Below, piece after piece: positions 3 to 32,942 of a stretch of DNA of 64,000 nucleotides (positions within the stretch are counted from its first letter, which is position 1; each line of letters begins with the position of its first letter). The stretch is from a virus (taxonomy: Duplodnaviria > Caudoviricetes), in the IMG/VR virus record IMGVR_UViG_3300032053_000004, positions 138,144 to 202,143 of that record, one strand, 5' to 3'. The notes below the pieces were generated by a model. The model did no database searches, was not told where the DNA came from, and worked only from the letters and a program-made list of their open reading frames with translations. Both the position numbers and the translations under genes were made by a program.

Positions 3-992
3 AAATCTATTGAGTGGATGTTTGATCATTCTAAAAGTCAAACTATAAATACTCCCCGTGATCCAAACGGGGTTCCATTCACAATAGAAGTTGGCAACAT
101 TCTTCCGGATCCTCTAACAGGACAACTTGAAGGAAGGTCTACTTGGATTACCAATAGATTAACTCCTGGTTGCAGTCTTATAGATTTCGGTTGTATTGAC
201 GGATCTATGACAAACCGTTGGGGGATGTCAGGATTTAAAGTAACCGGTGTTGATCTGAGTATGAATTCAATATCTATAGCAAACAAGAAAGCTATTCAGT
301 TTAATACTGGAGCTAAGCATATATGCTCTTATTTTAAGAACATTCCGAACCATATCATACAAAATTCTTTTGATGTCGCTACCTGTAGTGATACATATGA
401 ACATCTTATCGACCCTATTGTTGATTTACTAGAACCGGCCAGAAAATGTCTTTCTGGCCATGGAAGAATGCTTTTAGTTACTCCTCATGGAGCCTGGTTT
501 CGTGGTAAATTTCTTTCTTGGGCCCATCCTTGGTCTTGGTATAAGAGTGGTTCTTCCTGGTTAAAACCAGAACCAAGAGCTCATTTAGTAGCGCCAACTG
601 TTTGGTCTGTTGCGGATCATTTTCGAAAATCTAAATGGTGGGTTAAATCCTCTGAGGTTGTTATACAGTCTTATGGGGACGTTCCTGGTCAAGGAAATGT
701 GTGTGTGGAAGCTTTCGTTAACCCTCCACCTGTTTGGCCGGGTTTAGATATTGTAGTTTTGGGGTCTAATTTTGAATTGGCTGAATCTTTAGCTCTTCTC
801 GGTAATAGAGTTCGCCATTTCGGACCTTGGGATGAAGAAAAGATATCGAATTTTGTTGATCATATATTTGACTCAAAACTATTTGATATCAAATGTGACG
901 TTCTAATTTCTGATACGAACGTTGATTCTGTCGTTTCTAATAAAATTTATCCAAGCTCTGCTTCAGCTTCTGACGTTATCAATGGTGTCTAA
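3..992 (+). CDS. Class I SAM-dependent methyltransferase, 5'-partial, with a degenerate glycosyltransferase-like C-terminal segment
   Basis: Frame is open from position 3 (KSIEW precede the ATG at 18), so the gene probably starts upstream. SAM-binding motif LIDFGCIDG, then VTGVD and FDVATCSDTYEHLIDP, typical of UbiG/Methyltransf_11-like enzymes. Confidence 0.8.
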   Translation, partial: KSIEWMFDHSKSQTINTPRDPNGVPFTIEVGNILPDPLTGQLEGRSTWITNRLTPGCSLIDFGCIDGSMTNRWGMSGFKVTGVDLSMNSISIANKKAIQFNTGAKHICSYFKNIPNHIIQNSFDVATCSDTYEHLIDPIVDLLEPARKCLSGHGRMLLVTPHGAWFRGKFLSWAHPWSWYKSGSSWLKPEPRAHLVAPTVWSVADHFRKSKWWVKSSEVVIQSYGDVPGQGNVCVEAFVNPPPVWPGLDIVVLGSNFELAESLALLGNRVRHFGPWDEEKISNFVDHIFDSKLFDIKCDVLISDTNVDSVVSNKIYPSSASASDVINGV

Positions 993-2140
993 TGAGAATT
1001 GCTTTCTTAAATCATCCTATTGGGGTCAGAGACCCTGTTAATCCTGTTGATGTTTGGACCTCTTCTAGAGGTTTAACAGGATCTGAGATTGCTTTTTTTA
1101 AATACGCAGAAGAACTAACCAAACTCGGTCATGACGTAAATTTATTTACCAAATTTACTACTTCCGACCCGTTGGGTGGAAACGGACCTTATTGCATTCC
1201 TTATGATCAATGGGAAAGCATTTATTCTAAACAGAGTTGGGACGCAGCTTGTTGTTGGACGGTTGCGGACCCTCTTTCTTTAGTTGGTCCTGGAATATTT
1301 AGATTTTTGAATCATCAATGCAACGGATTTAGCGTCAGTCTTTCTGGTTGGGAAAAATATGTTGATATAATAGCGCCTCTTTCTCATACTCACGCTAGAG
1401 CTTTATCTAAAGATACGTCATTTTCTAAGGATAAATGGAGAATTCTCTACAATGGCGTTGATTGTTCTAAATTTTATCCTGAAAATAAAGAGTCTGGAAA
1501 ATTGATTTGGGCTTCCTCTTTAGATAGAGGACTTCATTGGTTATTAGAATCTTTTCCTTATATCAAAAGAAAAGCTCCTAACACGGAACTTCACGTCTTC
1601 TATGATTTCCATTCAATAGAACACGCGGCTGAGGTCTATTATCCTGGCGGGCAGCCGTATTTCACGAATGAACACTTTGAACTTGGGAACCGGGCTCGTT
1701 ATATTTTGCGTGCTCTTCAAAAACTTGAAGGAAAAGGTGTTCATGTCCATAAATCAGTTAGTCGTTCCAGAATAGAACAAGAAATGAAAACTTCTTCTAT
1801 CTTGGCCTATCCTTTAGATTCTATTTATTTTACTGAAACTTTCGGTGTCGTTGTTTTAGAAGCGTGTGCTTCAGGGACTATTCCCGTTCTATGTCTTGGC
1901 GATGCGTTCGGTGAGCTTTGGGGAGAAGTTGCTGAATCAGTTCCTCCCCCGTTTAAAGATCATAAAAATGAATATTTAGAAAAATTAATCAAATGTTTGA
2001 CTGATGACGCATATAGGGACAATCTATCTAAAAAATGCGTTGATCATGCTAAGAAGTTTGAGTGGTCAGTTCTCGCTAAAGGATTGGAAAAGTGCCTCTT
2101 GACTAAGGGTCAAGAGGGCCTTCCTCTTGTTGATTGGTGA
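992..2140 (+). CDS. GT-B glycosyltransferase, family 4-like
   Basis: N-terminal RIAF...GLTGSE...KLGHDV; C-terminal ETFGVVVLEACASG (E-x7-E donor-binding motif); LIWASSLDRGL. Confidence 0.88.
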   Translation: MRIAFLNHPIGVRDPVNPVDVWTSSRGLTGSEIAFFKYAEELTKLGHDVNLFTKFTTSDPLGGNGPYCIPYDQWESIYSKQSWDAACCWTVADPLSLVGPGIFRFLNHQCNGFSVSLSGWEKYVDIIAPLSHTHARALSKDTSFSKDKWRILYNGVDCSKFYPENKESGKLIWASSLDRGLHWLLESFPYIKRKAPNTELHVFYDFHSIEHAAEVYYPGGQPYFTNEHFELGNRARYILRALQKLEGKGVHVHKSVSRSRIEQEMKTSSILAYPLDSIYFTETFGVVVLEACASGTIPVLCLGDAFGELWGEVAESVPPPFKDHKNEYLEKLIKCLTDDAYRDNLSKKCVDHAKKFEWSVLAKGLEKCLLTKGQEGLPLVDW

Positions 2141-2144
2141 CATA

Positions 2145-3272
2145 ATGAATTTAAAAATTGCTTTTATTTATGGAAACTGGTGTTTGGGGAATCGTCCCAT
2201 TAATGTCAATGAATTATTTACATCTAAACGGGGTCTTACTGGCTCGGAACTTTCTTGTTTTATGTTTGCAAAAGAAATGGCTAAGAAAGGTCATAACACT
2301 TCATTATTCATAGGCGGCGGGTCAGGAGAATGGGAAGGAGTTAAAATTCGCGATATATCGGAGATATCATCTATTGATCCAACTTGGGATGTCGCCTATT
2401 CTTGGAATGAACCAGATCTTCTTCGTCAAGTAAACGCTAATTTGCGGATGATGAATCAGCAACTTAATGATTTTGCTTATTGTCAACCTGGGTATGACGA
2501 ATCTGTTGATGTTTATACAAGTCCTTCACAAACTCATATGGAGTTTCTTAAACCTCAAACACCGTCGCCCAATAAATGGGCAGTTATTCCTAACGGTTGT
2601 GATCCGAGTCAATACTCAGCCGGGAAAAAAGTTCCTGGAAGAGTTATTTATGCCTCCTCTCCTGACAGAGGACTTCATCTTTTGATGCAGGCTTGGCCTC
2701 GTATTAAGAAAAATGCTCCCCATGCTCATTTGAAAATATTTTATAACATGGATTACTGGTTGTCTGTTTTTGTTGGTCAAGAACACTCTATATACCCTGA
2801 TTCAATGGAATATGGGTATAGAGCTAGGTATATAGATTTAGCTTTTAAAAGATTTGCTGATTTAGGCGTAGAAAGAGTTGGGTCAGTTAGTCGAGAAGAA
2901 ATAGCTCAAGAAATGTCAGAAGCTGAAGTTCTGGCATACCCATGTGATACTGCCCGTTTTACAGAAGGATTTTCTGTAACAACGATGGAGGCTTGCGCTG
3001 CTGGAGCTGTTCCAGTCATTTCTTCCGTTGATGCTTTAGGTCAAATATATGGATCATTTATACCAACTGTTGAAGCCCCGGTGAAGAATAGATTAAATGA
3101 ATTTGCTGATATAATATCTCGTTCTCTTAATGATGAAAAATTCCGGAATAGTGTCATATTTAAAGCAAAAAGTCTTGCCCATAAACATAAATGGGAAAAA
3201 CTTTCTTCTGATCTTGAGAGTTTGATTATGAATAAGTTAGAGTTAAAAAGATGTTCCCAGCCTCTCATTTAA
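2145..3272 (+). CDS. GT-B glycosyltransferase, family 4-like (paralogue of the previous gene)
   Basis: KIAF...RGLTGSE...KKGH, VIYASSPDRGL, EGFSVTTMEACAAG. ATG at 2145 is preferred over the TTG at 2127. Confidence 0.88.
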   Translation: MNLKIAFIYGNWCLGNRPINVNELFTSKRGLTGSELSCFMFAKEMAKKGHNTSLFIGGGSGEWEGVKIRDISEISSIDPTWDVAYSWNEPDLLRQVNANLRMMNQQLNDFAYCQPGYDESVDVYTSPSQTHMEFLKPQTPSPNKWAVIPNGCDPSQYSAGKKVPGRVIYASSPDRGLHLLMQAWPRIKKNAPHAHLKIFYNMDYWLSVFVGQEHSIYPDSMEYGYRARYIDLAFKRFADLGVERVGSVSREEIAQEMSEAEVLAYPCDTARFTEGFSVTTMEACAAGAVPVISSVDALGQIYGSFIPTVEAPVKNRLNEFADIISRSLNDEKFRNSVIFKAKSLAHKHKWEKLSSDLESLIMNKLELKRCSQPLI

Positions 3273-4789
3273 CCCGTCACGCCCGCTCTCAAATAGAAAA
3301 GATTCCGGTACTTCTTATAGTGCCGCCGTCTATTTTTTTACTTGATGAACGTGTATTCATATCTTTAGGAATTTTGAAAGTAGCCGCGAGTCTTGAAGCG
3401 GCCGGGCATTCTGTTGAAGTTTTAGATTTATCAGGGATTGATAATTTTGAAGAAGTTTCTGCGATTCAGGCTAAAAATTCTTCTTCAAACATAGCTTGTT
3501 TAACTATCACAACTCCTCAACTCCCTGCGGCCGTAAAAATAGTTAAGTCTATTCGCAACGCTCGTCCTGACATGAAAATTGTGGCAGGTGGTCCACATGT
3601 TACTCTAGTTCATTCTGCAGTTAAACTTGAGAGAAAAGCCGGTCGAATCGGTCGAGCTCACCGAGCCTTAACGAAACTTGAAGAAATTTTCAATGTTCTT
3701 GTGAGTGGTGATGGTGAAAATTCTATTTTTCAAGCTATTAGTGAAAATGCTTCTAAAGTAATTGATGCTGATGACCCTAAAAACGGTCTGTTTATGACGA
3801 ATGAAGTTTATGGATCTACTCCTTGGCCCGCTCGTCATTTGATTGATATAAAATCATATAAATACACAATTGAAGGTTTTCCAGCAACTAGTTTAATAGC
3901 TCAACTTGGGTGTCCGTTTGGTTGCACATTTTGCGGAGGAAGAAACAGTAATATGCTCCGGAGGATTCGTACGAGATCCACCGAAAGCATTGTTGGAGAA
4001 ATTGAGCATCTTCATAAAAATTACGGCTATACTGGGTTTATGCTTTATGACGACGAACTTAATGTATCAAAAACAATTATTGAGCTTATGAACTCTATTG
4101 CGGATTTACAAGAGAAACTTGGAGTTGAGTTTAGATTACGAGGTTTCATTAAGAGTCAGTTGTTTACTGACGAGCAGGCTCAAGCTATGCGAAGAGCTGG
4201 ATTTCGGTGGCTTCTTTGCGGATTTGAAGCTGCTAATGATCGGATACTTGAAAATATAAACAAACGAGCCGATTTAGCAGATAATAATCGAGTGATGGAG
4301 ATCGCAGCTCGTCACGATCTTAAAGTAAAAGCTTTGATGAGTGTTGGTCACGCTGGAGAGTCAGAAAAATCCATAATGGACGTGCGAGATTGGCTGCTTC
4401 AAGTTCATCCCGCAGATTTTGATGTAACGACTATCACAACTTATCCAGGCACTCCGTATTATGATGAAGCTTTAGAACATCCGGAGTTGCCTGATGTTTG
4501 GACATATACGGCCAAAAACGGAGATAAACTTCATAGTTATGATGTAGATTATACTGCTGTTGCTGATTATTATAAAGGAGACCCGAGTGGCGGATACCAT
4601 TCATATGTATTTACAGATTATTTATCTGGAGACGAAATAGTAAAACTTCGAGATCAAGTTGAAAACGAAGTTCGAGAAAAACTGAATATTCCATTTAATC
4701 CTGGGGCTCCAGGGGTTAAATATGAACATTCAATGGGTCAAGGACCTCTTCCATCAAATATTCTTAGACAATCTAAAATTAATAAATAA
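3251..4789 (+). CDS. Cobalamin-binding radical SAM protein (class B methyltransferase-like)
   Basis: N-terminal B12-binding fold (SLGILKVAASL...VAGGPHVT); CxxxCxxC motif CPFGCTFC; DDELN, GFEAAND and TYPGTPYY as seen in B12-radical SAM enzymes. Confidence 0.9.
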   Translation: MFPASHLTRHARSQIEKIPVLLIVPPSIFLLDERVFISLGILKVAASLEAAGHSVEVLDLSGIDNFEEVSAIQAKNSSSNIACLTITTPQLPAAVKIVKSIRNARPDMKIVAGGPHVTLVHSAVKLERKAGRIGRAHRALTKLEEIFNVLVSGDGENSIFQAISENASKVIDADDPKNGLFMTNEVYGSTPWPARHLIDIKSYKYTIEGFPATSLIAQLGCPFGCTFCGGRNSNMLRRIRTRSTESIVGEIEHLHKNYGYTGFMLYDDELNVSKTIIELMNSIADLQEKLGVEFRLRGFIKSQLFTDEQAQAMRRAGFRWLLCGFEAANDRILENINKRADLADNNRVMEIAARHDLKVKALMSVGHAGESEKSIMDVRDWLLQVHPADFDVTTITTYPGTPYYDEALEHPELPDVWTYTAKNGDKLHSYDVDYTAVADYYKGDPSGGYHSYVFTDYLSGDEIVKLRDQVENEVREKLNIPFNPGAPGVKYEHSMGQGPLPSNILRQSKINK

Positions 4790-8730: not shown

Positions 8731-9156
8731 ATGAAGCCTTCTCAAGTCGCCATAGCTCTACGTCGTATCGCTGCCGGAATTCAGGCTTCAAAAAATCCTG
8801 ACAAGAATCTAGTTGCTCGAGATCTAAAGAAAATTATATCTAAAATAGCAGGCATGAATAATATGGATGGGATTAAGTGTTTAAAAGTTAATATTAGAGA
8901 ACATAAACCGTTAACACGAGACACCCCTTACCCAGTTATCGATGGAGTTTTTCAATTTAGTACTCCAAACGGGCATATTATAGATTTTGATGGAAGATTT
9001 GATCCTAATGACGTTCGATTTGTTCTTCTTAAAGATGGGGAAGATGTTTCAGATCAAATTGAGCCAGATGCATATAATATGGGTCCTGTTGATGAAAATT
9101 TAGAGGGTTTCGATCTTGAAGAAATTCTTGAGCATTGTATGAATTCTCAAGTTTAG
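8731..9156 (+). CDS. MKPSQ-leader family protein 1 (conserved 40-aa leader plus acidic variable domain)
   Basis: Leader MKPSQVAIALRRIAAGIQASKNPDKNLVARDLKKIISKIA is shared with four other ORFs. Confidence 0.85.
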   Translation: MKPSQVAIALRRIAAGIQASKNPDKNLVARDLKKIISKIAGMNNMDGIKCLKVNIREHKPLTRDTPYPVIDGVFQFSTPNGHIIDFDGRFDPNDVRFVLLKDGEDVSDQIEPDAYNMGPVDENLEGFDLEEILEHCMNSQV

Positions 9157-9801: not shown

Positions 9802-10311
9802 ATGGATAATCTAGATTCTGAAGCTTTAGCTGAACGTTATATAAATAGAATGTATATAGACCACCCGGCTGTTCGCTGGTGGGCACATCCTCGAATTTTA
9901 GTTGGTGGATCGATTAACAATTCTGATGATTTTGAAAATATGCAAAATAAATTCGGGGTTACATCAGTAATCTCCGTAGAATCCGAGCATTCGGATTCAG
10001 GCAAAGTTCCTGAAGCAATTTTATGTCATCTTCCAACACCAGATGATGGATCCGCACCGTCTGTCCAGCATTGGAAGACACTGATAGATTTCGCCCAAGT
10101 CGCACTGAAAGACCCTTCTTCTAAGGTCTATGTCCATTGCCAGATGGGCGGTAGCCGTTCTCCGGCTGCAGCTTATGCTATCTTGCGGACTGTATTTAAT
10201 TTCAGCCCGGAAGATGCCCTATCCAGTATCCAGCGTTTTAAAACTGAATATGGTGGGCATTGGTACCACCAAAATTATATTGGATCTGTTGAGACAGCTC
10301 TCACTTCTTGA
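9802..10311 (+). CDS. Dual-specificity protein phosphatase (PTP/DSP fold)
   Basis: Catalytic loop VYVHCQMGGSRS (HCxxGxxRS); general-acid loop LPTPDDGS; ILVGG and VISV upstream. Confidence 0.9.
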   Translation: MDNLDSEALAERYINRMYIDHPAVRWWAHPRILVGGSINNSDDFENMQNKFGVTSVISVESEHSDSGKVPEAILCHLPTPDDGSAPSVQHWKTLIDFAQVALKDPSSKVYVHCQMGGSRSPAAAYAILRTVFNFSPEDALSSIQRFKTEYGGHWYHQNYIGSVETALTS

Positions 10312-10941: not shown

Positions 10942-11343
10942 ATGAAGCCTTCACAAGTTGCCATAGCCCTTCGTCGTATTGCTTCCGGAATTCAGGCTTC
11001 AAAGAATCCTGATAAGAGGCTCGTCGCGAGGGATTTAAAGAAAATTATTGCTGAAATAGCAGGAATGGATATGGATGAACTTCCATTCAAAGGTGACTCG
11101 GAATTTGAAGAAGTGATGATTGGAATCATGTTTGATCAAGAAATTGGACTTGATAACGCTATTAATAAAGCAAAAGAACTAATTGAAAGAGATGGGTTTA
11201 AAACTGGGAAATTTATGATCGACCATCATCGCCCTGGGACAATTGTTGGAAATATGGAAATTTCTCCCGGGTTTTATGATAAATTCTCTGATGGTTGGGA
11301 GTCAGAGGATGAAGGTGTAATTGTTACCCTGGAAGCTCCTTGA
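10942..11343 (+). CDS. MKPSQ-leader family protein 3
   Basis: Same leader; acidic, unrelated C-terminus. Confidence 0.85.
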   Translation: MKPSQVAIALRRIASGIQASKNPDKRLVARDLKKIIAEIAGMDMDELPFKGDSEFEEVMIGIMFDQEIGLDNAINKAKELIERDGFKTGKFMIDHHRPGTIVGNMEISPGFYDKFSDGWESEDEGVIVTLEAP

Positions 11344-12656: not shown

Positions 12657-13982
12657 ATGCCCGCACCTCCTGATCGATACCCTGAAATTCTAGAACAAAT
12701 TTATCCGGCTATCCCGTTAGCGCCGTTGAACGTTCTAGCCTCTACGGGTTTCGAAAAAGGAGTCGTAGATATCCGCTGGACGAATCCGGCAGAAATTGCG
12801 GCTAATACCACATTTAATATTTTAGGGGTCAATGTTTATCGGAGTTTTGACTCGGCCTTTGGTCCATATTTTCGTTTAACCCAAGTTCCTATCGGGTCTA
12901 CATTTTATAGAGATAGATCTGACATACGGATGGCGGTTCAAGAAAACGTATCCGATTCTTTCATTTTAAGAGGACCAACTTCAGACCCTAGTTCTCGATA
13001 TGTATTTAGGACTATTCAACGTCCTATCCATTTAGACCAATTTCCGGGATTGTCTGACTGGACGAATTTAAATGTCCAGGTCACTATTAATGGAAAAAAG
13101 TCATTTGTTGAAAAAATTGATTCAACCTTAGGGGAGGTTTCTTTAGGTATCTATCCATCTTTTGATGTTGGTAATAAAGAACAAATTCAACCAGTTTTAC
13201 CTACGAATCCAAGCGATGTTGTTCTCGCTACCTACAAATACGTAAAATCATTTGTTCCAACAGATTTAGCCCAAAGGATATTCTATCGTTTAACCACTGT
13301 CGCATATGATCCTGAATGCAATCAACTCATAGAAACTCCTCTTGATCGAGCTTCGCAAACGAACAATCAAGAAGTTGAGAAGCTCGATTGGATTTGGAAA
13401 GAAGCAGTGCGTCGTAATCGTTGGATTCTCCAAATGGGAGGAGAACGAGTCAAATTATTTATTAGAAGAGTCGTAGGACCGAATTGTGGTTGTAACTCTT
13501 CCATATACAAACAACCTTCTTCTGATTGTGTTGTTTGTTATGGAACGGGGATTATTGGTGGATATTCTGGTCCTTATGATATAGTAATAGCTCCGGACGA
13601 CGCGGACAAATCCATAAAACAAGCAAATCGTGGAAGAAATTTAGATCACTCGTACGAGACTTGGACTAGTCCGAGTCCTCTTCTTTCTCAAAGGGATTTT
13701 GTAGTTAAACTGAATGGCGATCGTTATGGGATAGGTCCTGTTCGAATGCCGACAAATCGGGGTATGCAACTCCAACAATTTTTCACTATTTCTCACTTAG
13801 ATGAACAAGATATTAGATATAAAATTCCAGTTCTTGATACGACAGTTCTTGTTTTTCCACAAACTCGTTATACTATTCCTGGAAAAGGTAACGCAACTCC
13901 GATGGTCACGGAGTCTCAACGGATCCCGGATGAACATGAGATTCGAGGGGCCACCGTTACATTCCAAAATACTCAGTACTAG
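12657..13982 (+). CDS. Neck/head-closure-like virion protein with a Zn-finger insertion
   Basis: CGC...CVVCYGTGIIGGY motif followed by a beta-rich closure-type region (ETWTSPSPLLSQRDFVV...RYGI). Confidence 0.55.
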   Translation: MPAPPDRYPEILEQIYPAIPLAPLNVLASTGFEKGVVDIRWTNPAEIAANTTFNILGVNVYRSFDSAFGPYFRLTQVPIGSTFYRDRSDIRMAVQENVSDSFILRGPTSDPSSRYVFRTIQRPIHLDQFPGLSDWTNLNVQVTINGKKSFVEKIDSTLGEVSLGIYPSFDVGNKEQIQPVLPTNPSDVVLATYKYVKSFVPTDLAQRIFYRLTTVAYDPECNQLIETPLDRASQTNNQEVEKLDWIWKEAVRRNRWILQMGGERVKLFIRRVVGPNCGCNSSIYKQPSSDCVVCYGTGIIGGYSGPYDIVIAPDDADKSIKQANRGRNLDHSYETWTSPSPLLSQRDFVVKLNGDRYGIGPVRMPTNRGMQLQQFFTISHLDEQDIRYKIPVLDTTVLVFPQTRYTIPGKGNATPMVTESQRIPDEHEIRGATVTFQNTQY

Positions 13983-14035: not shown

Positions 14036-14698
14036 ATGAGTATGCAAAAGAAAAAAAACGTAAATTATGCGACTCAATTAAATACGGTAGTCGATAGAAT
14101 ACTAGATAATATAGTAGATAATATAGCTAAAGATGGACTTGTTCTTTTAAAGAAAGTATTAGATTCATCCGGTTTTGCGGATTCTGAGTATCTTAAAGAT
14201 TATGAAGTATATGCTCATGTAACCGGACACTCCATAACTTTTGAAATTCTTCTCGACACATCAGCTATAGACGAAATTGAACAAGAAAAATCAGAAGAAG
14301 CAAAAGAAAAAGCTGAAAAAATAAAAGAAAAAAAGATTGAAAGAGCCTCTAGGTCTTACGGGATTGTAAAAACCGGGCCAGCCAGAGTTCTTGGAGTTCG
14401 AGACGCTCGTTCTCCAGCTATAGACGCGCGGACGGATAATAGAAAGAATTCGAAAGACCGATTAGTTGAACATGAGATAGCTTTAGTAGCTCCTCGTGGT
14501 CTTTCCGTAAAAAGGAATGGTAAAGTTTCTCTTAAATTAAAAAGAACAGCGAGAGAAACTGATACTGAATTCATTTATCCTAAACGAGACCCTGAAGGAA
14601 TAATAAAAGAGTTTCTTGATAAGTTAAGTGATATAACTAAGAAGAATTTTCTTCCAGAACTTGAAAAAGCGATATCTAAATATGCTTCTCAAAATTAA
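14036..14698 (+). CDS. Hypothetical protein (neck/tail-completion region)
   Basis: 220-aa ORF in operon context. Confidence 0.55.
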   Translation: MSMQKKKNVNYATQLNTVVDRILDNIVDNIAKDGLVLLKKVLDSSGFADSEYLKDYEVYAHVTGHSITFEILLDTSAIDEIEQEKSEEAKEKAEKIKEKKIERASRSYGIVKTGPARVLGVRDARSPAIDARTDNRKNSKDRLVEHEIALVAPRGLSVKRNGKVSLKLKRTARETDTEFIYPKRDPEGIIKEFLDKLSDITKKNFLPELEKAISKYASQN

Positions 14699-15242
14699 AT
14701 TGATAAATCAGATATCTTCAGATATAATTATTGAGGATATAGGAGTTAAATTGAGTGGGAAAGGTGATTCCCGTATAGTAGATTTTGACATTGCCTCAAA
14801 GTCTAAAGATTTGGTTCGTATGGCTGGAATAGTTAGACAAGAGCAAATTCCTGTGCTTAAAATTTGGCCATTCACATCCACCCCGGATATTCCGGTTCCA
14901 AAATCTATAATTCCCCCTCAAAAGCCGAACCCCGTCAAAATCATAATTCACGATGATCAATCAAAAGCCATTTCAGAACTTTCTTCAAAAATGGATATGA
15001 TTCTTCAAATGCTTTCGGAAAAATCTAATACTCCGACAACTATCGTAAATCAAATAATGCCTTCATCTGGACAGATTGCTCAGTCTCCGATGAAAAAATC
15101 GGATGATCCGGTATTCATACCTAGTAAGATAGTCCCGGATGGAGTTGAATCAAATATGAATATTAAATCTAATGAAATTCAGAAAGAAGATATTGAAGAT
15201 GTGAGTAGAAAACTTGGTTCTTTGTTAAGATCTAAGAAGTAA
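14682..15242 (+). CDS. Hypothetical protein, Pro-rich middle, directly upstream of the actin-like gene
   Basis: ATG at 14682 overlaps the end of the previous gene; preferred over TTG at 14661. Confidence 0.55.
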   Translation: MLLKIKLINQISSDIIIEDIGVKLSGKGDSRIVDFDIASKSKDLVRMAGIVRQEQIPVLKIWPFTSTPDIPVPKSIIPPQKPNPVKIIIHDDQSKAISELSSKMDMILQMLSEKSNTPTTIVNQIMPSSGQIAQSPMKKSDDPVFIPSKIVPDGVESNMNIKSNEIQKEDIEDVSRKLGSLLRSKK

Positions 15243-15254
15243 TGTTATACTGGA

Positions 15255-16283
15255 ATGGCTAGGAAAGAAACACATATGGAAAAGTCTGAAATCGTTCCAG
15301 GTTGCTCTATAGACGTTGGCACCATGAACTTGGTGGCCGCTCGTCGATCTGGGAAAAAAGTATCCACTAATCGAATTCGAAATGCTTTTATAGATTTAGA
15401 ACCTGATAAGAAGAGAATGCTTAAGTTGAGTAACACGAGTTTCGTAGAACTCGGGGATCGTCTTTTAGTCTTGGGCGACGAAGCTTTAGAAACCGCTAAT
15501 TTGTTTAATCGTGAAGCTCGCCGCCCAATGTCTGGAGGATTGATGGCTTCAGGAGAACTTGATTCTCAACAAATTATCAGTTTGATGATGAAAAAAATAT
15601 TAGGAGATCCTACAGTCCCTAATGAAAAATGTGCTTATTCAGTCCCTGCCCCGGCTGTTGATGTTAATGATTCTGATATCACATATCATAAAGCAGTTTT
15701 AAAGAAAATTTTGACTGAGCTTGGATACGATGCCATAGATGTTAATGAAGCTTTAGCCATCATATTTTCAGAGTGTGGTAATGAAAATTTTTCTGGCCTT
15801 GGGATAAGCTATGGTTCTGGTATGACTAATGTTTGTCTTGCCTATAACGCCATGAGTGCCATGGAGTTCTCTTTAGGGAGAGGCGGGGATTACATAGATC
15901 GTGGAGCCGCTAAAGCTGTTGGCACTACAGCTGCTCGAATTTGTTCTATTAAAGAAGGTAAGTCTAAATCTGTAGACATAACTAAACCTGAAACTCGGGA
16001 AGAAGAAGCTATAGCTTTGTTCGTTCAAACTCTCATAGATTATACTATAGATAATATCATTACTCATTTTCATAATGTAAAAAGTGAGCTTTTCATACCG
16101 AAACCAGTTCCTATAATAGTTTCCGGCGGGACTTCATTGGCTAATGGATTTTTGGAGAAATTTAAGGAACGATTTAAACTTCATTCAGGAAAGTTCCCGT
16201 TTCAAGTTTCAGATATAAGGGCTGCTGCTGACCCTATGACAGCTGTGTCTACCGGACTGTTATTATTGAGTCAGATGGATTGA
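15255..16283 (+). CDS. Actin-fold ATPase, volactin-like family
   Basis: Phosphate-1 IDVGTMN, phosphate-2 GISYGSGMTNVCLAY, RGGDYID, adenosine motif IIVSGGTS, C-terminal connect-2 DPMTAVSTG. Confidence 0.85.
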   Translation: MARKETHMEKSEIVPGCSIDVGTMNLVAARRSGKKVSTNRIRNAFIDLEPDKKRMLKLSNTSFVELGDRLLVLGDEALETANLFNREARRPMSGGLMASGELDSQQIISLMMKKILGDPTVPNEKCAYSVPAPAVDVNDSDITYHKAVLKKILTELGYDAIDVNEALAIIFSECGNENFSGLGISYGSGMTNVCLAYNAMSAMEFSLGRGGDYIDRGAAKAVGTTAARICSIKEGKSKSVDITKPETREEEAIALFVQTLIDYTIDNIITHFHNVKSELFIPKPVPIIVSGGTSLANGFLEKFKERFKLHSGKFPFQVSDIRAAADPMTAVSTGLLLLSQMD

Positions 16284-16313
16284 TTGATACCTGTTTAATG
16301 CGGAATACTTAAT

Positions 16314-16595
16314 ATGGATAATTATTTTCGTGGCGTTCCTGTTGGAAAGATAATCACGACTGTTGAAGACGTTATATCTCATAACGCTTCTGTTGGTATA
16401 CTTTCTCCCTCAGGTCAACCGACTAATCAAGTCGATCCTCCTTCGCTCCCTTTAGCCCCAGAGCCTCCCCAAAATACTGGGGGTTCTCAGGAAGAAATTC
16501 CTGCTGTGGAAGCTTCTGAACCTGTGGAAGCTTCTGAACCTGTGGAAGCTTCTGAATCTGATGCATCAGATTCTCCAAAGCGTCGTCGTCGATAA
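16314..16595 (+). CDS. Small disordered acidic/Pro-rich protein
   Basis: 93-aa ORF with VEASEP repeats and a C-terminal KRRRR. Confidence 0.55.
   Translation: MDNYFRGVPVGKIITTVEDVISHNASVGILSPSGQPTNQVDPPSLPLAPEPPQNTGGSQEEIPAVEASEPVEASEPVEASESDASDSPKRRRR
16504..16556. repeat. 18-nt tandem repeat x3 (CCTGTGGAAGCTTCTGAA)
   Basis: Read directly; encodes VEASEP. Confidence 0.9.
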
Positions 16596-16607: not shown

Positions 16608-17819
16608 GTGCAATATTCTTGGCTCAGTTCACCTATTAAGAAGAAGCTCATACATGAGCTTCGTTCAATATTAGAGAGTCACCCCAGATACCGGGGTGAC
16701 GCTCAAAACGTTCAAAATAAATTCGCCTTTACCGAAAGGCCTCAACGTGGGATTATACTAAATAATACTTCTGCAGATCGAGTTAGACTATCTGCAGATA
16801 ACTATATCGGTTGTCTTTCTTCATTTTGTATGCTTGCTTATTACACGGATTTTCCTGGGACTACTATTGAGTGGGTTCGGGAAAATTCGGATTTGCTTTA
16901 TAAGATTTCCCCAAAAAGGAACATTTTTCCTAGTCATCCTGGCGTATATAATATATCAATAACTGAAGTTCCGGATGAAGCTCATAATATTCCTGGGAAA
17001 TTTGTTATAACTCCTCTTTTGACCATTACTAATGAACCACTGATTGTTTTTTCTAGTTCAGGTGATTTTGATGCCCAGCTTTCTCATGAAAATATCTATC
17101 CAGGGTCCGTTAGGCTTTGGTTAGATCAAAGAATAGCTCTTCTAGAAGGTGTAGACTTTATTGTTGAAAATACGACCGGATATGTAACGTTTTTAAAACC
17201 AACTCCTACTGGGTATTCAGTTTCTGCTGATTATCGATTCATAATCCCGGATCAAGGTCCACTTGATTTTAAATCAGAAGAATTTGATGCTACTTCAATT
17301 CCTGGAGTCGTTATAGCATTTGGTGATCGGGCTCAAAAAGGAGACCGGTTATCTATTGTTGTGACTGACGAAAGAGTTGATACTGCCTCAATTTATGGCG
17401 GGAAATTTGAAATCAATACTGAACTTATAGTTTTTACTCGGGACGCTGAAGACCGAGAAAAAATGAGCGATTATGTGATAATTAAAATGCTTGAGCGCCA
17501 AAATGATCTCGGATTTTTAGGCATAGAACTTCTCGATATTTCCCCAGGGGGTGAGAGCGAAGAAGTTTACAATGAAGCCACTGACGATTATTTTTATGAT
17601 AGCACAATCTCGCTTTCTCTTCGGGTAGACTGGGAGTCATACATTCCTCTCCCGATCGAAGTCGAAGCTATCCGTATGACATCTAAATCAGCAGAACAAG
17701 AAACTGGTTATTTGGATGGAACATTCCCATACGATTTATTGAAAATCGGTTCTCCTGTGGAAGTTGCAGGGGTGAATACTATTATCGGTCGGAATATCGG
17801 ATATGAGCGAACTCGTTAG
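16608..17819 (+). CDS. Tail terminator/tail-completion-like protein
   Basis: Position just before the sheath; C-terminal segment resembling a terminator fold (EINTELIVFTRDAEDREKMSDYV...YFYDSTISLSLRVDW). Confidence 0.5.
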   Translation: MQYSWLSSPIKKKLIHELRSILESHPRYRGDAQNVQNKFAFTERPQRGIILNNTSADRVRLSADNYIGCLSSFCMLAYYTDFPGTTIEWVRENSDLLYKISPKRNIFPSHPGVYNISITEVPDEAHNIPGKFVITPLLTITNEPLIVFSSSGDFDAQLSHENIYPGSVRLWLDQRIALLEGVDFIVENTTGYVTFLKPTPTGYSVSADYRFIIPDQGPLDFKSEEFDATSIPGVVIAFGDRAQKGDRLSIVVTDERVDTASIYGGKFEINTELIVFTRDAEDREKMSDYVIIKMLERQNDLGFLGIELLDISPGGESEEVYNEATDDYFYDSTISLSLRVDWESYIPLPIEVEAIRMTSKSAEQETGYLDGTFPYDLLKIGSPVEVAGVNTIIGRNIGYERTR

Positions 17820-17870: not shown

Positions 17871-18284
17871 GTGCCTGTATTTGAATACACATGCAAAAAT
17901 TGCGATGTTGGTTTCGAAGAAATTTTAGTTAATTCAGAAGATATTAAAAATTTTTTCGAAAAGCATAAATGTCCTGTTTGCAATAAATGGGCGAAAAGAC
18001 AACCAGTTTCCGCAGTGAATTTTACTTTTAAGTCCTCTACACCTGGAAACTCAGGGTCTCATGATTTGGATTATCCGACCTTAGATAAGGCTGTCGGAAG
18101 ATCTTCTGAGAAAAAATGGGGAAAAATTAATGATAGAAAAGCTGCCCGAGACAAAGTAAGAAAAGAATCTGGTACCAATTCTATAACTCAAATCGGTAAT
18201 AAAATGATGCCGACTTCTCCTGAAAAATTGGCAGTACGTCAAAAAGCTTTCGAAACTTTAAGAGAAGTTTCGAAAAAGTCTTAG
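17871..18284 (+). CDS. FmdB-family zinc-ribbon protein
   Basis: MPVFEYTCKNC...FEE...CPVC, the characteristic FmdB N-terminus. Confidence 0.8.
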   Translation: MPVFEYTCKNCDVGFEEILVNSEDIKNFFEKHKCPVCNKWAKRQPVSAVNFTFKSSTPGNSGSHDLDYPTLDKAVGRSSEKKWGKINDRKAARDKVRKESGTNSITQIGNKMMPTSPEKLAVRQKAFETLREVSKKS

Positions 18285-18443: not shown

Positions 18444-21400
18444 ATGGGAATCGGACCTTTCACCACATACGCACCTCCTGGAGTTTACACGAGCACCTTA
18501 GTTGAACCGGCCGTCGGTCAACTTTTAGGTGGTCTTCGTATACCTGTACTAATTGGCACAGGCCAAGAATCTATGTCTCAGGACAATTATGAAATTGTCC
18601 GTGGGTCTAGCAGCGTATCCGATACTCCGATCTTCGGAGAAGACGTCGCTGCCCGCTGGGTTGTTAGTGGTACTAACACCAACCCGGTCCTTGGTAACCA
18701 AACCGGGGATCTTTTCAAGTTCCGAGTTCGGAACTATCCGATCGTAGATGGGACTGGCATCGGGCGGACTGCCTTTGACGCTAACCGCGTTGCAGTTTCT
18801 GTCAATGGCCAACCTGTATCTGTTTCTGGTGTTGATGGCACTAACGGCATCGTCTCTCTTTTAATTGCTCCTGAGCCTACTGATATTGTTACAGTTAATT
18901 ATTATTTCCACCGTAAAGATACCAGAATCACCGATGACGTCTCGATTCAGGTGACGCTCGGATCTGCCGTTCTGATTGTTCCGAGAGTAGAGACATATGT
19001 CATAGTTACTGGTGTTAACGACACATTAATCGTTAATGTCAATGATTCGGCCAGTTCTTCGACGATCGTTTTCCCGGCGGCTACATATACCGCTGCTTCA
19101 GCGGCTAATGCTATTAATATAGCGGCCATTCCGGGTCTCACAGCCTCGGTCCATGTTGATAATCAGGCCTTGAATCACGTTCAGCTCGTTGCTCAAGGAA
19201 ACGTTCTGATTGGTTCAGGAAACGCCAACGGAACCTTCGGACTCAATCCGGGCGCATATACGAATAGAAATCGTAGTTTCCGAGTATTCAACGGTCCGAT
19301 CGTTGACGGGTCTGATGGTGGCATTACGACCACTGATCCTTCGAAGGTCGTGGTTATGGTTAATGGCACTCAGGTTCTCGCTTCGGCGGTGGACGGTGCC
19401 AATCGTTTAGTGACTCTTTCGTCTGCTCCTTTTAATGCAGCGATAGTTACTATTCAATACTACTTCAACACATACCAAGATACTTTCGATTATCTCCCGA
19501 ATTCAAATATCGTTTCGACCGGGAATGTCGGCATATCCCCTGGCCGTCGGGACTATCTGAACGGCCCCGATTTCATCGTCATAAACCAAGGCGATCAGTC
19601 CATAATTCAGTGGGGTACCGCCTTCCAGGTTCAGCCGGGAACGAGAACCGGAACCACGTTTTTCGATGGAACCCAAGTTCTTGGGTTACTTGTCGATGAT
19701 CGCATATTTGCGATAGAGTGTGCTCGATTTACTAATCCGACTACAAATTCGATCGAGACGAATGTTTGGACGCTTCCGCTCCAGCCTACGACCGGAAATG
19801 GGCGTGATACGCCTCTTTCAACTTCTGTATTCAATGCCATAACGAATGGCAGAATTGATCTTCCAACCGATCAGCCTGAACTGGTTACTGCTTATGTTGG
19901 AAAAACGGTCCGCGACGCTCTCGGGCGTCCTCCGGTCACCGTTCTTGCGGTTGATTCTGTGACCAATAATATAACTCTTAAAGATCCGGTTCCAGCGGAT
20001 TATAGAGTTTACGCAACATTCTGGTACAATCGTATTCAGGATGACACTTATACCCTGACGGTCATCAACGCTGGTTCTACTGGTGTTGGTACGTATAACG
20101 TCGCATCCCAAGCTCAGGGTCGTAATCTTCTGAGTATGAGATTCGGAACGAAGACGGCTCTTCCCCAATCGGTTAATTTCCCGAGTGGTTCAGAACTCAA
20201 TCCCGACGCGATTCAATTCGGTGGGAACCCGGTTTCTGAAACTGCGACTATTACTTTCACGTTGCAACCGGCGACTCACGCTTCGTTCACCAATGCGAAC
20301 GCGGAGCCGTACGATCTGTTTGCCCCAGGGTCGAACATTTTCGGGAGCGTCATTATTGACGGTGTTCCGATCAGCGTGAACATGTCTACGGCTTATCCGG
20401 CAACTCTCGCCGGTCAGCCGGTGTTTACTCCGGCAACTCTCGTTTTCGCGGCGACGGATCGTCTCGTTCTTGAAGTTGATGGTGTTTCGCTCAGCCCAAT
20501 CGATGTGAGCGCTCTCACTACGCTCTCGGCTGTTGCGAACTCGGTCAATGAACAGACTGTTATCGATCTCGCAAATGAGCTGAAGGCGGATTATAACTCT
20601 CATATTGCATCTACGACATATCATCTTGCAGCGGACGTCGCTAACCCGGTTACATCTCCTGATGCAACCTCACTTGCATCTGCTATTACTCTCATAAACG
20701 AGATGCAGGGTGACTACAACGCCCACAGAGTCAGCGTAGTTTTCCATCCAAACGCTGATATAATTAACGTATCGGCGGCGGCTGCAGCTGTCGATCTTCC
20801 GACTGCCGTCACACTCGCTAATGAACTGAAGACCGTATTTAACTCTCATCGCGTTCAGTTCAATACAACGAACGGAAACGTTCATGTTATTGATGATACA
20901 GTGAACGTTGTTTCCACTCCCAATTCTGGTGGAGTGGCAACAGTTATCACTTACGGAACCGAACAGGTTCTGGGTCTTCAGAGCACGAAGACTCCAGCAG
21001 CAGCACCTTCTGGATTGAATGATCTTTCTAGAACCAAGGTTTTGATCCCGGTTCTTTCGGGCCAAACTGACGCGGCGTCTAAAATCGGCCTCCAGTCCAA
21101 TTTGGAAGCCACTGGGTCTTACAACTCGATCAATCAGCCTGGATTCCAAGTTAGTGGAAACGCCGGACCATTCAATATTTCAGCATCGGTTACTGATCAG
21201 TTTAGGTTCAATATTGACGGAACTGATTTTACTTCAATTCTTCCGTCAGGATCAACGACTTCAACTACAGCAGTCGCCAACGCCATCAACGGAACCATAG
21301 CTTCAGCGGCCGACATAGCAACCGCTACAGCTACGCTCGTTACTCTTGCAAACGATATCAAGACTCAGTTTAACCTTCACATACCGTCTGTTGTTTTCCA

Positions 21401-23489
21401 CACGATTGCTGACGTCGTTAATACCATAACGTCTCCTGCTGCAACAGATCTCACGACGTCCATAACGCTTTTGAATGAAGCAAGACTGCGCCATAACGCT
21501 CATCGGGTTACTGGCGCTTTCCATCCAGCTCCGGATACGATAAACGCTGTTCTTGCGTCTAACGCAACGAATCTTGGAACAGCGATTACTCTCGCCAATG
21601 AGATTAAGGCTGAGTTTAATCGTCATCGGCTTCAGACTATCGGTGCTGTCAATGTTCACGTGGCTGATGACGCCGTAAACGTTGTTGCGGCAGTGGATGT
21701 GCTTTTTGCAAATCCTGCGGCCTTCGCAGGAACGTTGACCGGTCAGTATGCAGGTAAGCTCCTCCTCCGTTCCTTCGTCAATACTGTTCAGTCGGTTGTG
21801 ACTACTCAGGACGGAACGGCAAACTCAGTTCTTGGATTCTCGAGTTTTGTAGACGCTTTCCGTGACCAGCCTACGGCTTCGGATATCGCGTCGGCTTTGG
21901 ATGCGAATACGACATTCTTCGGAGCAGTACCGGTTCTCCCTGCGGTTCTTCGGACTAGTTCCAAGAGCATTGCATGGGCGATATCCGTAGCTGGTCTTGG
22001 AATGTTCCTCCAGATTAACTCGGATACTGCCGGTTCGACGTCAACGATTTCGTTTGCTTCTGTTGCAAACACGGCGTTCATTCCGGATACTGGGATCGGA
22101 ATTACTCCAGGAATCTCCGGAGATACTGGAGAAGCCACTCACTCGGGCTTCACGGTCACTTCGTCGGACTTGATTAACGGTTCTAGTGGAACTGGTTTCC
22201 CAGGCCAGACTTACACGGACGCCCGTACCGGTCTTCGATTCACCATTCTTCCTGCTACGAGCGGAGATTACGCGATCGGTGGGAGTTTCACTCTCCTCAT
22301 AGGATCGACTTTCACCTGCGACGCGTCAATTCCGACTCGCCAAGTTCCGGGTATTGAGACTACGGTTCTGAATACGAACGGTATGGCCGCTGGTACTACG
22401 GCGTTCTTGTCCACATACCTCAGGACTGGCAATGAGCCTAGGAACGGGGATGTTTACTACATCTCATATCAGTTCGCGAAGACTGATATTTCTACGGCTC
22501 TTTTCCGGGATCTCAAGAGGATTCAACAGAACTTCGGACCTCCGACGCCTGAATTCCCTCTGAGTTTGGCTGCTCGTTTGGCTCTTTTGAACGGTGCCGT
22601 TCTCGTTGGAATTCGTCAGGTTCTTCGGGCTCCGAATTCTTCCCAGGCTTCTCTGCAATCATATGTCGAAGCGATTGATGATCAGCAGAAACCGATTGCT
22701 GGGAACATTAAACCGGATGTGATTACTCCTCTCACGTCTGACCCCCAGGTATTTGCTTACCTGAACCAACACTGTGCTTTCATGGGTTCACCTCGTCAAG
22801 AAGGTGAGCGTATCGGAGTTGTTGGTGTTGCGGTTGGAACCAACCCTCTCGGGGTTCAAGCTATCGCTAAGGGCTTGGCTTCTGAGCTCATGATTGTGGT
22901 TTATCCTGATTCATACGTGGTTACAATCACGGATACGGCGTCAGGTGGAAACCTCGATCTTTTGATTGATGGGACTTATTGTGCTGCGGCCTTGGCCGGA
23001 ACGGCATGCGCTCCTTCAATCGACGTGGCTACTCCTTGGACTCGTAGACAAATCCAAGGGCTCAAGCGCGTGGGTCGTATTCTTGATCCAACGGATGCCA
23101 ACCAGACGGCTGTTGCTGGTGTTACCGTCATTGAGCAAGTTGAGTCGGGTCTTCGGGTTCGTCACGGTCTCACGACAAACCTGGCCTCAGTCATTACGCG
23201 TACTCCTTCTGTCATATTGACCATTCAATATGTTCAACAGACCATGCGTAAGGTCCTGGATCCGTTCATCGGCCAGAAGTTCAATGGTCAAATTCTCAAG
23301 TCAATTGAGAGTGCCATGGTCGGAGCTTTCTCGACTCTGATCGATAATCAGATCGTGGCCAAGGTTTCGGGCATATCGGCAACTGTCGATGATCAGGATC
23401 CGACGATTGCTCGAACGGAAGCCATTTACGTTCCTGTCTTCCCGCTAGAATATATAGTATCTATACTTTCTATTCGTATTAGATTATAA
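18444..23489 (+). CDS. Contractile tail sheath protein with large insertions (1681 aa)
   Basis: N-terminal YAPPGVYT; C-terminal sheath core (ERIGVVG...GVTVIEQ...RVRHGLTT...FIGQK...YVPVFPLEYI); purine-rich SD-like leader. Confidence 0.9.
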   Translation: MGIGPFTTYAPPGVYTSTLVEPAVGQLLGGLRIPVLIGTGQESMSQDNYEIVRGSSSVSDTPIFGEDVAARWVVSGTNTNPVLGNQTGDLFKFRVRNYPIVDGTGIGRTAFDANRVAVSVNGQPVSVSGVDGTNGIVSLLIAPEPTDIVTVNYYFHRKDTRITDDVSIQVTLGSAVLIVPRVETYVIVTGVNDTLIVNVNDSASSSTIVFPAATYTAASAANAINIAAIPGLTASVHVDNQALNHVQLVAQGNVLIGSGNANGTFGLNPGAYTNRNRSFRVFNGPIVDGSDGGITTTDPSKVVVMVNGTQVLASAVDGANRLVTLSSAPFNAAIVTIQYYFNTYQDTFDYLPNSNIVSTGNVGISPGRRDYLNGPDFIVINQGDQSIIQWGTAFQVQPGTRTGTTFFDGTQVLGLLVDDRIFAIECARFTNPTTNSIETNVWTLPLQPTTGNGRDTPLSTSVFNAITNGRIDLPTDQPELVTAYVGKTVRDALGRPPVTVLAVDSVTNNITLKDPVPADYRVYATFWYNRIQDDTYTLTVINAGSTGVGTYNVASQAQGRNLLSMRFGTKTALPQSVNFPSGSELNPDAIQFGGNPVSETATITFTLQPATHASFTNANAEPYDLFAPGSNIFGSVIIDGVPISVNMSTAYPATLAGQPVFTPATLVFAATDRLVLEVDGVSLSPIDVSALTTLSAVANSVNEQTVIDLANELKADYNSHIASTTYHLAADVANPVTSPDATSLASAITLINEMQGDYNAHRVSVVFHPNADIINVSAAAAAVDLPTAVTLANELKTVFNSHRVQFNTTNGNVHVIDDTVNVVSTPNSGGVATVITYGTEQVLGLQSTKTPAAAPSGLNDLSRTKVLIPVLSGQTDAASKIGLQSNLEATGSYNSINQPGFQVSGNAGPFNISASVTDQFRFNIDGTDFTSILPSGSTTSTTAVANAINGTIASAADIATATATLVTLANDIKTQFNLHIPSVVFHTIADVVNTITSPAATDLTTSITLLNEARLRHNAHRVTGAFHPAPDTINAVLASNATNLGTAITLANEIKAEFNRHRLQTIGAVNVHVADDAVNVVAAVDVLFANPAAFAGTLTGQYAGKLLLRSFVNTVQSVVTTQDGTANSVLGFSSFVDAFRDQPTASDIASALDANTTFFGAVPVLPAVLRTSSKSIAWAISVAGLGMFLQINSDTAGSTSTISFASVANTAFIPDTGIGITPGISGDTGEATHSGFTVTSSDLINGSSGTGFPGQTYTDARTGLRFTILPATSGDYAIGGSFTLLIGSTFTCDASIPTRQVPGIETTVLNTNGMAAGTTAFLSTYLRTGNEPRNGDVYYISYQFAKTDISTALFRDLKRIQQNFGPPTPEFPLSLAARLALLNGAVLVGIRQVLRAPNSSQASLQSYVEAIDDQQKPIAGNIKPDVITPLTSDPQVFAYLNQHCAFMGSPRQEGERIGVVGVAVGTNPLGVQAIAKGLASELMIVVYPDSYVVTITDTASGGNLDLLIDGTYCAAALAGTACAPSIDVATPWTRRQIQGLKRVGRILDPTDANQTAVAGVTVIEQVESGLRVRHGLTTNLASVITRTPSVILTIQYVQQTMRKVLDPFIGQKFNGQILKSIESAMVGAFSTLIDNQIVAKVSGISATVDDQDPTIARTEAIYVPVFPLEYIVSILSIRIRL

Positions 23490-29928: not shown

Positions 29929-30167
29929 ATAGGATAGCTTTTAGAATAGCATCCTTAGATGTTTCTGTTGAAATAAACGGCGATAATATATCATTAACTA
30001 GAAGTGACGGAAAAATCATAAAGGGAACTTACGTAGAGCAAGACGATGAGGCGACGTTACAGGAGAATACTACGGAATTGGCTCCGGATCAGGCTTTATG
30101 GATCCTGGAACAAGCTTCGAATTTTGGTCCCACTACTACCTGGGATGAATTAATATCTATTCTCTAA
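29925..30167 (+). CDS. Small acidic protein with N-terminal IAFRIAS motif
   Basis: ATGA overlap with the upstream gene; motif shared with 6799 and 11395. Confidence 0.6.
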   Translation: MNRIAFRIASLDVSVEINGDNISLTRSDGKIIKGTYVEQDDEATLQENTTELAPDQALWILEQASNFGPTTTWDELISIL

Positions 30168-32882: not shown

Positions 32883-32942
32883 TGTTTTTGGAGTGTACTG
32901 TTCTACAAGAAGACTTAAGTTTTTATTCTTTTTGCGTTTTTG

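Follow-up and report, generated by a model that had tools for sequence, protein, structure and literature searches.

We analysed a 64,000-nucleotide (nt) stretch of DNA, hereafter the window, which covers bases 138144–202143 of the 202,143-base IMG/VR virus record IMGVR_UViG_3300032053_000004 and is the end of that fragment. Our subjects are the gene at 15255–16283 of the window, which encodes an actin-like protein, and the gene upstream of it at 14682–15242, a candidate for its adaptor. The source is a huge phage from sediment metagenomes; DNA near-identical to the fragment is present in many such metagenomes, and CheckV rates the record as 47% complete. Between 12657 and 18284, seven plus-strand open reading frames (ORFs) are tightly packed with intergenic gaps of 12–53 nt, and a gene for a protein of 1681 amino acids (aa) starts 159 nt past 18284 and runs from 18444 to 23489. 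A scan for promoter and terminator consensus sequences gave nothing clearly above shuffled sequence, and no transcription unit was defined.

A predicted volactin-family actin

Judged by its sequence and structural model, the product of 15255–16283 is a full-length volactin-family actin-fold ATPase with its nucleotide-binding motifs intact. The original prediction, made by a model from the DNA letters alone, had read a complete actin fold from a set of motifs, and all of those that it quoted are present in the translation: DVGTMN (residues 20–25), RNAF, GDEAL..ANLFNRE.RRPM, PNEK..YSVPA, LGYDA...NFSGLGISYGSGMTNVCLAY and RGGDYID. The completeness of the fold is borne out by an AlphaFold2 model of the 342-aa protein, built on 45 diverse relatives, with a mean predicted local distance difference test score (pLDDT) of 95 and a predicted template modelling score of 0.91.

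In the Pfam scan, the protein matched Volactin (PF25216) with 242.7 bits against a cut-off of 35 (E = 9e-72), covering profile positions 4–318 of 321, and FtsA appeared as a non-significant trace. Searching at the level of the genome led to the same family result. The best Foldseek match in AlphaFold DB/Swiss-Prot was Haloferax volcanii volactin, D4GU28 (E = 4e-38, 36% identity), with which the model aligns over its full length at template modelling (TM) scores of 0.89/0.88 and a root-mean-square deviation (rmsd) of 2.0 Å across 330 columns. Lower fold matches were salactin (TM 0.73), MamK (0.67) and MreB (∼0.6), all at 14–19% identity. In the PDB, fold matches (TM 0.54–0.68) and profile matches fell on MamK, MreB, BeeR, crenactin, actin and FtsA, with the family profile reaching 5e-14 for MamK, 1.4e-9 for BeeR and 5e-7 for MreB, while the ethanolamine-utilisation protein EutJ scored lower and was a weak exception among matches that are otherwise of polymer type. 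A single-sequence search of PDB chains with the actin returned nothing relevant, in contrast to the profile search, and the PHROGs search yielded no family for it. Neither ParM nor StbA appeared in the Pfam scan, among the PDB profile matches or among the listed fold matches, though kinship may exist even where no fold match is returned.

It had also been proposed that the motifs track Haloferax volactin (HVO_2015) rather than MreB, FtsA or ParM, and on this the Pfam family, the fold match and the profile matches agree. Almost all of the solved structures nearest to it form filaments, and no grouping with non-polymerising actin-fold enzymes was found. MamK, BeeR and MreB, the closest solved structures, all polymerise, but they belong to separate families at the low identities given above.

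All 45 aligned members share the nucleotide-binding residues D20, G22, E165, G187, G189, G291 and G292. The phosphate-2 block, NFSG-LGISYGSGM, resembles NFTG-LGVDFGAG of volactin, and the adenosine block, VPIIVSGGTS, resembles VPVVVTGGTS (the volactin adenosine motif is also printed as VVTGGTSS), where both volactin motifs are those printed in the supplement of PMC10869688. In H. volcanii, volactin-msfGFP forms dynamic filaments in vivo, these filaments touch the membrane by their tips, and volactin affects cell shape (PMC10869688). For the phage protein we infer filament formation, as we do any role in virion assembly.

Conservation of the locus in related phages

A search of 5.8 billion proteins returned 1190 matches to the actin, the best 120 of which have 62–100% identity and lie on contigs of up to 439 kb, and 1027 clusters were found at E ≤ 0.001 among 50%-identity representatives. 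Copies in GenBank lie in two huge-phage records, LR745208.1 (50% identity) and LR756511.1 (30% identity). The sequences of alignment A1 varied too much to yield a usable scanning pattern, and single-protein patterns picked up just one locus among viruses and none among genomes.

Loci in IMG/VR were gathered via the actin and, independently, via the terminator encoded two genes further downstream (237 relatives, of which 80 were kept). The same gene order recurs in both locus sets: 441-aa gene, 220-aa gene, adaptor, actin, a slot of variable content, terminator, zinc (Zn) ribbon and sheath. When each distinct terminator sequence is counted once, provided that 1.3 kb or more of DNA precedes it, the actin lies directly upstream of the terminator, on the same strand, in 64 of 67 loci, and these loci span terminator identities down to ∼31%. 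A synteny survey in related phages had been suggested at the outset as a check on the actin, and the survey finds its place to be fixed. The two genes have also diverged together, with the identities of actin and terminator to the window copies being correlated (Spearman 0.83, n = 62), and the actin was the better conserved of the two in 62/62 comparisons.

A FastTree phylogeny of 200 sequences, with two MreB proteins as the root, groups every block-linked phage copy in one clade of 80 rows (local support 86–87), which is sister to a clade of 21 rows (support 99) holding chromosomal Pseudomonadota copies. The copy in LR756511.1, whose context is unrelated and shows no block synteny, belongs to the family's other main branch. 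Sorting the family representatives by acidity did not single out haloarchaeal volactins. We conclude that the actin is an almost universal, vertically inherited gene in the neck–tail block of a large clade of huge phages.

Among the 150 best representative clusters, 17 carry inteins of 143–452 aa inside the phosphate-2 motif, with Hint, Intein_splicing and often LAGLIDADG domains (P0121, P0122, P0124, P0126, P0127, P0131, P0141, P0154, P0161, P0163, P0185, P0189, P0209, P0210, P0253, P0264 and P0267), as does the locus L052. There are at least three or four insertion sites, after S185, G187, M190 and N192 in the numbering of the window protein. That inteins have entered a single ATP-binding loop several times over is in keeping with strong constraint on the gene. 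Other architectures occur in a metagenomic set of representatives (P0151, P0169, P0125 and P0140, the first two named Planctomycetota), in which the volactin domain is fused to a ParB helix-turn-helix (HTH) domain or to a Wzz/GNVR/ParA-like tyrosine-kinase module, or is doubled into a tandem actin of ∼730 aa.

The upstream gene as a candidate adaptor

Both small ORFs flanking the actin contain proline-rich stretches, and both had been proposed as adaptors, a proposal that holds up for the upstream gene and fails for the downstream one. The product of 14682–15242 is a credible adaptor, with a conserved tail, a co-fold with the actin that passes our mark, and a tail of the same kind on the neighbours of bacterial volactin genes. 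In alignment A4 (21 members at 23–34% identity), the protein consists of an N-terminal domain (N-domain) of ∼65 aa, a WPF motif, a proline-rich linker, a helix followed by a variable stretch, and the conserved tail. Within this tail, DPxFIPSxIxP leads into an alternating segment and a basic ..LKKLRK end, and P143, F145, P147, I150, P152 and L178 are nearly invariant. No transmembrane segment was found in the adaptor, and its N-domain has no match in the PDB or Pfam. Across the 202 kb record, the N-domain hidden Markov model (HMM) matches only 14682–15242, and the tail occurs on no other ORF. In 49 of 58 distinct phage loci, the adaptor-tail HMM finds an ORF ending at most 1.6 kb upstream of the actin, and since the sequence pattern adds two further loci, the tail is present in at least 51 of the 58.

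Co-folding of the actin with the adaptor, both supplied as alignments, gave a score of 0.74, compared with 0.38 for the best of three controls. The mark applied is reached by 58 of 80 solved complexes and by 2 of 110 mismatched pairs, counts that are only rough because our own alignments were used. Three runs share at least 60% of their contacts, with a partner pLDDT of at least 57. On the adaptor side, the interface is exactly the conserved tail (residues 144–183), while on the actin side it is made up of the strands at 33–41 and 62–76, the helices at 99–115 and 143–156, residues 171–179 and the C-terminal helix at 326–342. These elements belong to subdomains IA and IB in the model, together with elements that line the IA/IIA cleft, where the cleft assignment is our reading of how actin-fold proteins are generally built. 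The tail is predicted to wrap subdomains IA and IB and to reach this cleft, and the co-fold supports, rather than shows, binding of the adaptor to the actin.

The predicted contact could also be that of an assembly chaperone, in which a non-polymerising ATPase of the Hsp70 or EutJ type would hold the adaptor tail and assist neck and tail parts in folding or coming together. The co-fold does have an extended peptide on the ATPase, with strand addition, EutJ is found among the weaker fold and profile matches, and the actin gene lies among morphogenesis genes. We nevertheless regard a chaperone as distinctly unlikely, as the strongest relatives are all filament formers, volactin polymerises in vivo, and the phage protein is a bare 342-aa actin core that carries no Hsp70 substrate-binding domain.

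The layout of two genes, an actin and a tail-bearing adaptor, is also that expected of a ParMRC-type system for partitioning the DNA of a plasmid-like phage genome, with the upstream protein acting as a ParR-like centromere binder, and the ParB HTH fusions of some Planctomycetota family members would suit such a role. ParM/ParR, Alp7A/Alp7R and the prophage-encoded AlpC system are established examples of an actin-like NTPase paired with a small adaptor. The likeness does not extend far, however: those systems belong to another family, stand in a replication or partition context, make use of a centromere repeat and have the adaptor gene downstream of the actin rather than upstream. Here, no repeat array or non-coding space adjoins the pair, with gaps of 12–53 nt and no intergenic repeats between 13900 and 16700, where the sole tandem repeat is in frame within 16314–16595. 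In addition, the actin sits inside the virion structural block and not among replication genes, and ParM is absent among its listed sequence and fold matches, so that we consider partition very improbable.

The downstream ORF at 16314–16595 was rejected as an adaptor. It shows no likeness to the adaptor, including no similarity to the N-domain, and of 64 distinct loci, 17 lack the slot that it occupies between actin and terminator (gap ≤ 60 nt), while in the rest this slot is filled by unrelated ORFs or by additional genes. By tblastn, 16314–16595 recurs in only two other loci, and its tandem repeat is an 18-nt unit at 16504–16560 that encodes EASEPV three times. This ORF is a variable filler.

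A similar tail beside cellular volactin genes

Of the 401 Pseudomonadota genomes sampled, 22 have a protein that scores above the PF25216 cut-off. One of the Pseudomonadota copies lies on a 2.3 Mb contig, and the neighbours examined at other loci are cellular genes, encoding GGDEF/EAL proteins and an ABC transporter. The actin gene is preceded there by a FimV_N-domain membrane protein, a membrane protein of 132–136 aa, or both. In seven genomes, the last ∼50 residues of these upstream membrane proteins hold F[IV]P[ST][IM]x, ∼25 residues and then ..KKL.., preceded by a clear transmembrane segment. The KD19 values of the bacterial partners are 2.2–2.6, as opposed to 0.64–1.84 in the phage adaptors, only 1 of 21 of which exceeds 1.6, in a stretch that carries charged residues. 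The likeness between the phage and bacterial tails is one of pattern, position and layout, since the tail HMM was not significant against the bacterial ORFs. In comparison with the phage pair, the Pseudomonadota operons have an actin of the sister clade and the same tail, but their partners are membrane proteins and their context is cellular. The loci recorded for the chromosomal operon of a FimV_N protein, a 132–136-aa transmembrane protein and volactin are L134/L143, L135/L144, L141/L145, L138, L139, L140 and L142, and the literature that we searched contains no description of such an operon.

A possibly related arrangement is described for H. volcanii, where HVO_2016, the gene adjoining volactin, encodes a CdpA-like protein (PMC12126565). 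The published layout of this neighbour, an anchor of four membrane segments followed by a disordered linker and a small C-terminal domain, may parallel that of the phage adaptor. The actins themselves (VolA in H. volcanii) share the Pfam family, the fold and the type of phosphate-2 and adenosine motifs. The phage copy differs in being viral, in lying in a neck–tail block, and in having a neighbour with a soluble N-domain in place of four transmembrane segments, and the shape role of Haloferax volactin cannot be assumed for it.

These cellular systems raise the explanation that the phage pair is directed at the host, with the actin or adaptor engaging the host volactin system or envelope late in infection and thereby reshaping the cell or blocking division instead of building virions. 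Such a role would draw on the shared tail layout of the bacterial membrane proteins, on the sister relationship of the phage and Pseudomonadota clades, and on the effect of volactin on Haloferax cell shape. Volactin genes were found in only 22 of the 401 sampled genomes, however, and the fixed place between neck and terminator genes, together with the co-divergence with the terminator, fits a morphogenetic role better. We consider a host-directed function unlikely; examples of it would be phage filaments that dock on host membrane anchors bearing this tail, or competition between those anchors and the soluble adaptor.

A putative late cytoskeletal cassette

The reading that we favour, and hold with moderate confidence, is that the volactin-family actin and its adaptor form a late cytoskeletal cassette that organises particle assembly. 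The two genes would be expressed with the late structural genes, and the actin would use ATP to polymerise, giving dynamic filaments like those of Haloferax volactin. The adaptor tail would hold the filament while the adaptor N-domain would hold a phage target. A soluble domain would thereby take the place of the cellular membrane anchor, for which reason the filament would probably be tied to a particle or an assembly intermediate and not to the membrane. Such a filament would most likely serve to position heads, necks and tails, or to gather them, within a large host cell. More specifically, late volactin filaments that the soluble adaptor links to an intermediate of the neck, tail or capsid could move or align particles for head–tail joining, with the FIPS...KKL tail being a general volactin-docking peptide of phages, bacteria and perhaps archaea; we put forward this joint proposal only tentatively, as a possible but doubtful one.

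Several results weigh against the assembly cassette. No cultured phage was found with an actin homologue, the GenBank copies being confined to the two huge-phage records. Two loci, L071 and L080, have no actin at the site, and there the 220-aa gene runs straight into the terminator. In L071 (5756–9209) the adaptor gene is missing as well, whereas a 56-aa adaptor remnant is left in L080 (5234–9161), and no actin gene was found in the available DNA of either record, both of which are fragments. In a third record, L125, the actin gene lies elsewhere. From these three exceptions it follows that the actin is not strictly needed at this place. The phylogeny was built with FastTree only, its support for the phage clade is moderate and archaeal sequences are not placed in it, and the adaptor-tail HMM gave E > 1 against the bacterial ORFs, with no significance on such short tails. 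As natural deletion variants, L071 and L080 are usable for comparison.

The exceptions also bear on the possibility that the pair is a passenger cassette, a long-resident accessory insert at a permissive site whose function is unrelated to that of its neighbours. The pair is cleanly absent in L071 and L080 and relocated in one record, the slot just downstream of it is a hotspot for variable ORFs, and inteins and other mobile elements frequent the actin gene. A passenger is, however, quite improbable given that the pair keeps the same place in 64 of 67 loci with terminator identity falling to ∼31%, that its divergence is correlated with that of the terminator, and that the actin is the most strongly conserved gene in the block.

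Should the assembly cassette prove correct, it would extend the uses to which phages put a cytoskeleton. Those known are built from tubulin (PhuZ) or from a few ParM-like proteins tied to DNA, and a near-universal actin in the morphogenesis block of a whole clade of 200–500 kb phages would be a different use. The PhuZ spindle of nucleus-forming jumbo phages is thought to organise replication and particle assembly. PhuZ of the Chimalliviridae would thus be a fellow phage cytomotive filament by analogy of function only, as it has a tubulin fold and its genes lie outside the tail module; a search for tubulin in the 202 kb fragment gave no match. In 2024, volactin was described as a protein of haloarchaeal cell shape; the family to which it belongs is large, with members from Pseudomonadota, Planctomycetota and huge phages, and the literature searched contains no account of the family in phages or bacteria. 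The phage pair offers a concrete two-protein system to test, and a putative docking tail shared by the products of neighbouring genes offers a testable handle on filament anchoring in cells. If the docking role is true, the FIPS...KKL tail would determine how the whole of this little-studied actin family attaches to cargo or membrane.

Neighbouring structural genes

The coordinates of the block are collected in Table 1.

Table 1. Genes, domains and motifs of the block around the actin gene, in window coordinates
Feature	Coordinates	Strand	Remarks
Conserved module gene, possible neck or head-completion protein, with CxxC...CxxC knuckle	12657–13982	+	441 aa; near-universal synteny, weak leads
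Conserved module gene, no assigned function	14036–14698	+	220 aa; synteny
Soluble adaptor candidate (g193)	14682–15242	+	186 aa from ATG; 193 aa from TTG at 14661 (longest frame)
Adaptor, small N-terminal domain, ∼65 aa (ITN..IEDLGV.L.G.GSS..S.DL)	14682–14879	+	Conserved block in alignment A4
Adaptor, C-terminal tail, residues 141–186	15102–15239	+	DPxFIPSxIxP, alternating strand, basic ..L(K/R)KL(R/K)K helix
Predicted Volactin-family actin-fold ATPase	15255–16283	+	342 aa; PF25216
Actin, phosphate-1 motif DVGTMN, residues 20–25	15312–15329	+	D20, G22 invariant, T23 nearly so (45 members)
Actin, phosphate-2 motif GISYGSGMTN, residues 183–192	15801–15830	+	G187, G189 invariant; intein hotspot in relatives
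Actin, adenosine motif SGGTS, residues 290–294	16122–16136	+	G291, G292 invariant, T293 nearly so
Variable small ORF with in-frame tandem repeat	16314–16595	+	93 aa; not conserved
Predicted tail terminator with inserted immunoglobulin (Ig)-like domain (residues ∼138–212)	16608–17819	+	403 aa; fold alignment
Zn-ribbon protein	17871–18284	+	137 aa; Zn_ribbon_8, E = 3e-6, under the family cut-off; syntenic
Giant tail sheath candidate	18444–23489	+	1681 aa; C-terminal 450 aa sheath-like

The identity of the putative terminator comes from its fold. Folded on 15 homologues, the protein reached a pLDDT of 76.6 and aligned in VIA-align with neck, gateway and terminator chains of 812, E217, Pa193, Sf14, Bxb1, R4C and diffocin at Z scores of 13.2–10.1. 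The individual scores include 13.2 for the phage 812 neck (rmsd 3.0, 153 residues aligned), 13.1 for the E217 gateway, 13.0 for the Pa193 gateway and 10.3 for the R4C stopper–terminator complex. Foldseek gave probability 1.00 for the phage 812 neck, and the Atlas lead was SP10_terminator (0.90). The protein is about twice the usual size because of the inserted Ig-like domain, which matches domains of tail fibres, baseplates and type IX secretion system substrates at Z 7–9; its last ∼50 residues are poorly modelled.

The gene at 18444–23489 has no Pfam or PHROG match and is syntenic in related loci. In language-model features only, the C-terminal 450 aa of its product resemble DUF2586 and Phage_sheath_1/1C clusters (0.90–0.94). 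At 1681 aa, and 1557–1939 aa in relatives, this sheath candidate is several times the usual size of a sheath. Weak DUF2460-like matches occur in both the sheath candidate and the terminator, while the 403-aa and 1681-aa proteins have no detectable sequence similarity to each other. The Zn-ribbon gene between them keeps its position in related loci, and a Baseplate_J protein is encoded further downstream, at 60134–63595.

On the other side of the actin, the leads are weaker. The protein of 12657–13982 weakly matched phrog_2806 (E = 4.6e-7) and phrog_1004, ‘virion structural protein’ (E = 0.0056), and its Atlas rows were T4 neck-protein and Phage_HCP clusters, also weak, with TM by row of 0.58–0.59; the gene is syntenic in nearly all related loci. 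The gene at 14036–14698 has no family match in Pfam or PHROGs and is syntenic at 32–44% identity in the nearer loci. The original prediction had placed the actin between neck and tail-terminator genes in a late structural operon. Its terminator side is upheld by the fold and its neck side is plausible, and the structural context is confirmed in that the actin sits in a neck–tail block marked by the terminator fold and the sheath-like features.

Other observations in the window

Most genes between 10900 and 28100 start without a Shine–Dalgarno sequence, several of them following an A/T-rich stretch that ends in TAAT, which may point to a host for which Shine–Dalgarno pairing is dispensable. One relative is binned in a Methylobacter metagenome-assembled genome, which is weak evidence for a host.

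Small ORFs starting at 8731, 9196, 10942, 11851 and 23622 share the N-terminal leader MKPSQVAIALRRIAS..., and when used as queries, those at 10942, 11851 and 23622 cross-match one another's homologues in L021, L037 and L045. At 30150–31913 (−) and 32940–34730 (+) lie genes for paralogous proteins with REase_MTES_1575-like and Mom/GNAT-like domains, one of them with treble-clef zinc fingers, both of which are candidates for DNA-modification enzymes; Mom-like genes flank the block in the relatives L005 and L006. Upstream of the structural block, 18–4789 encodes a methyltransferase, two group-1 glycosyltransferases and a B12-binding radical SAM enzyme, and a dual-specificity phosphatase-like gene is found at 9802–10311.

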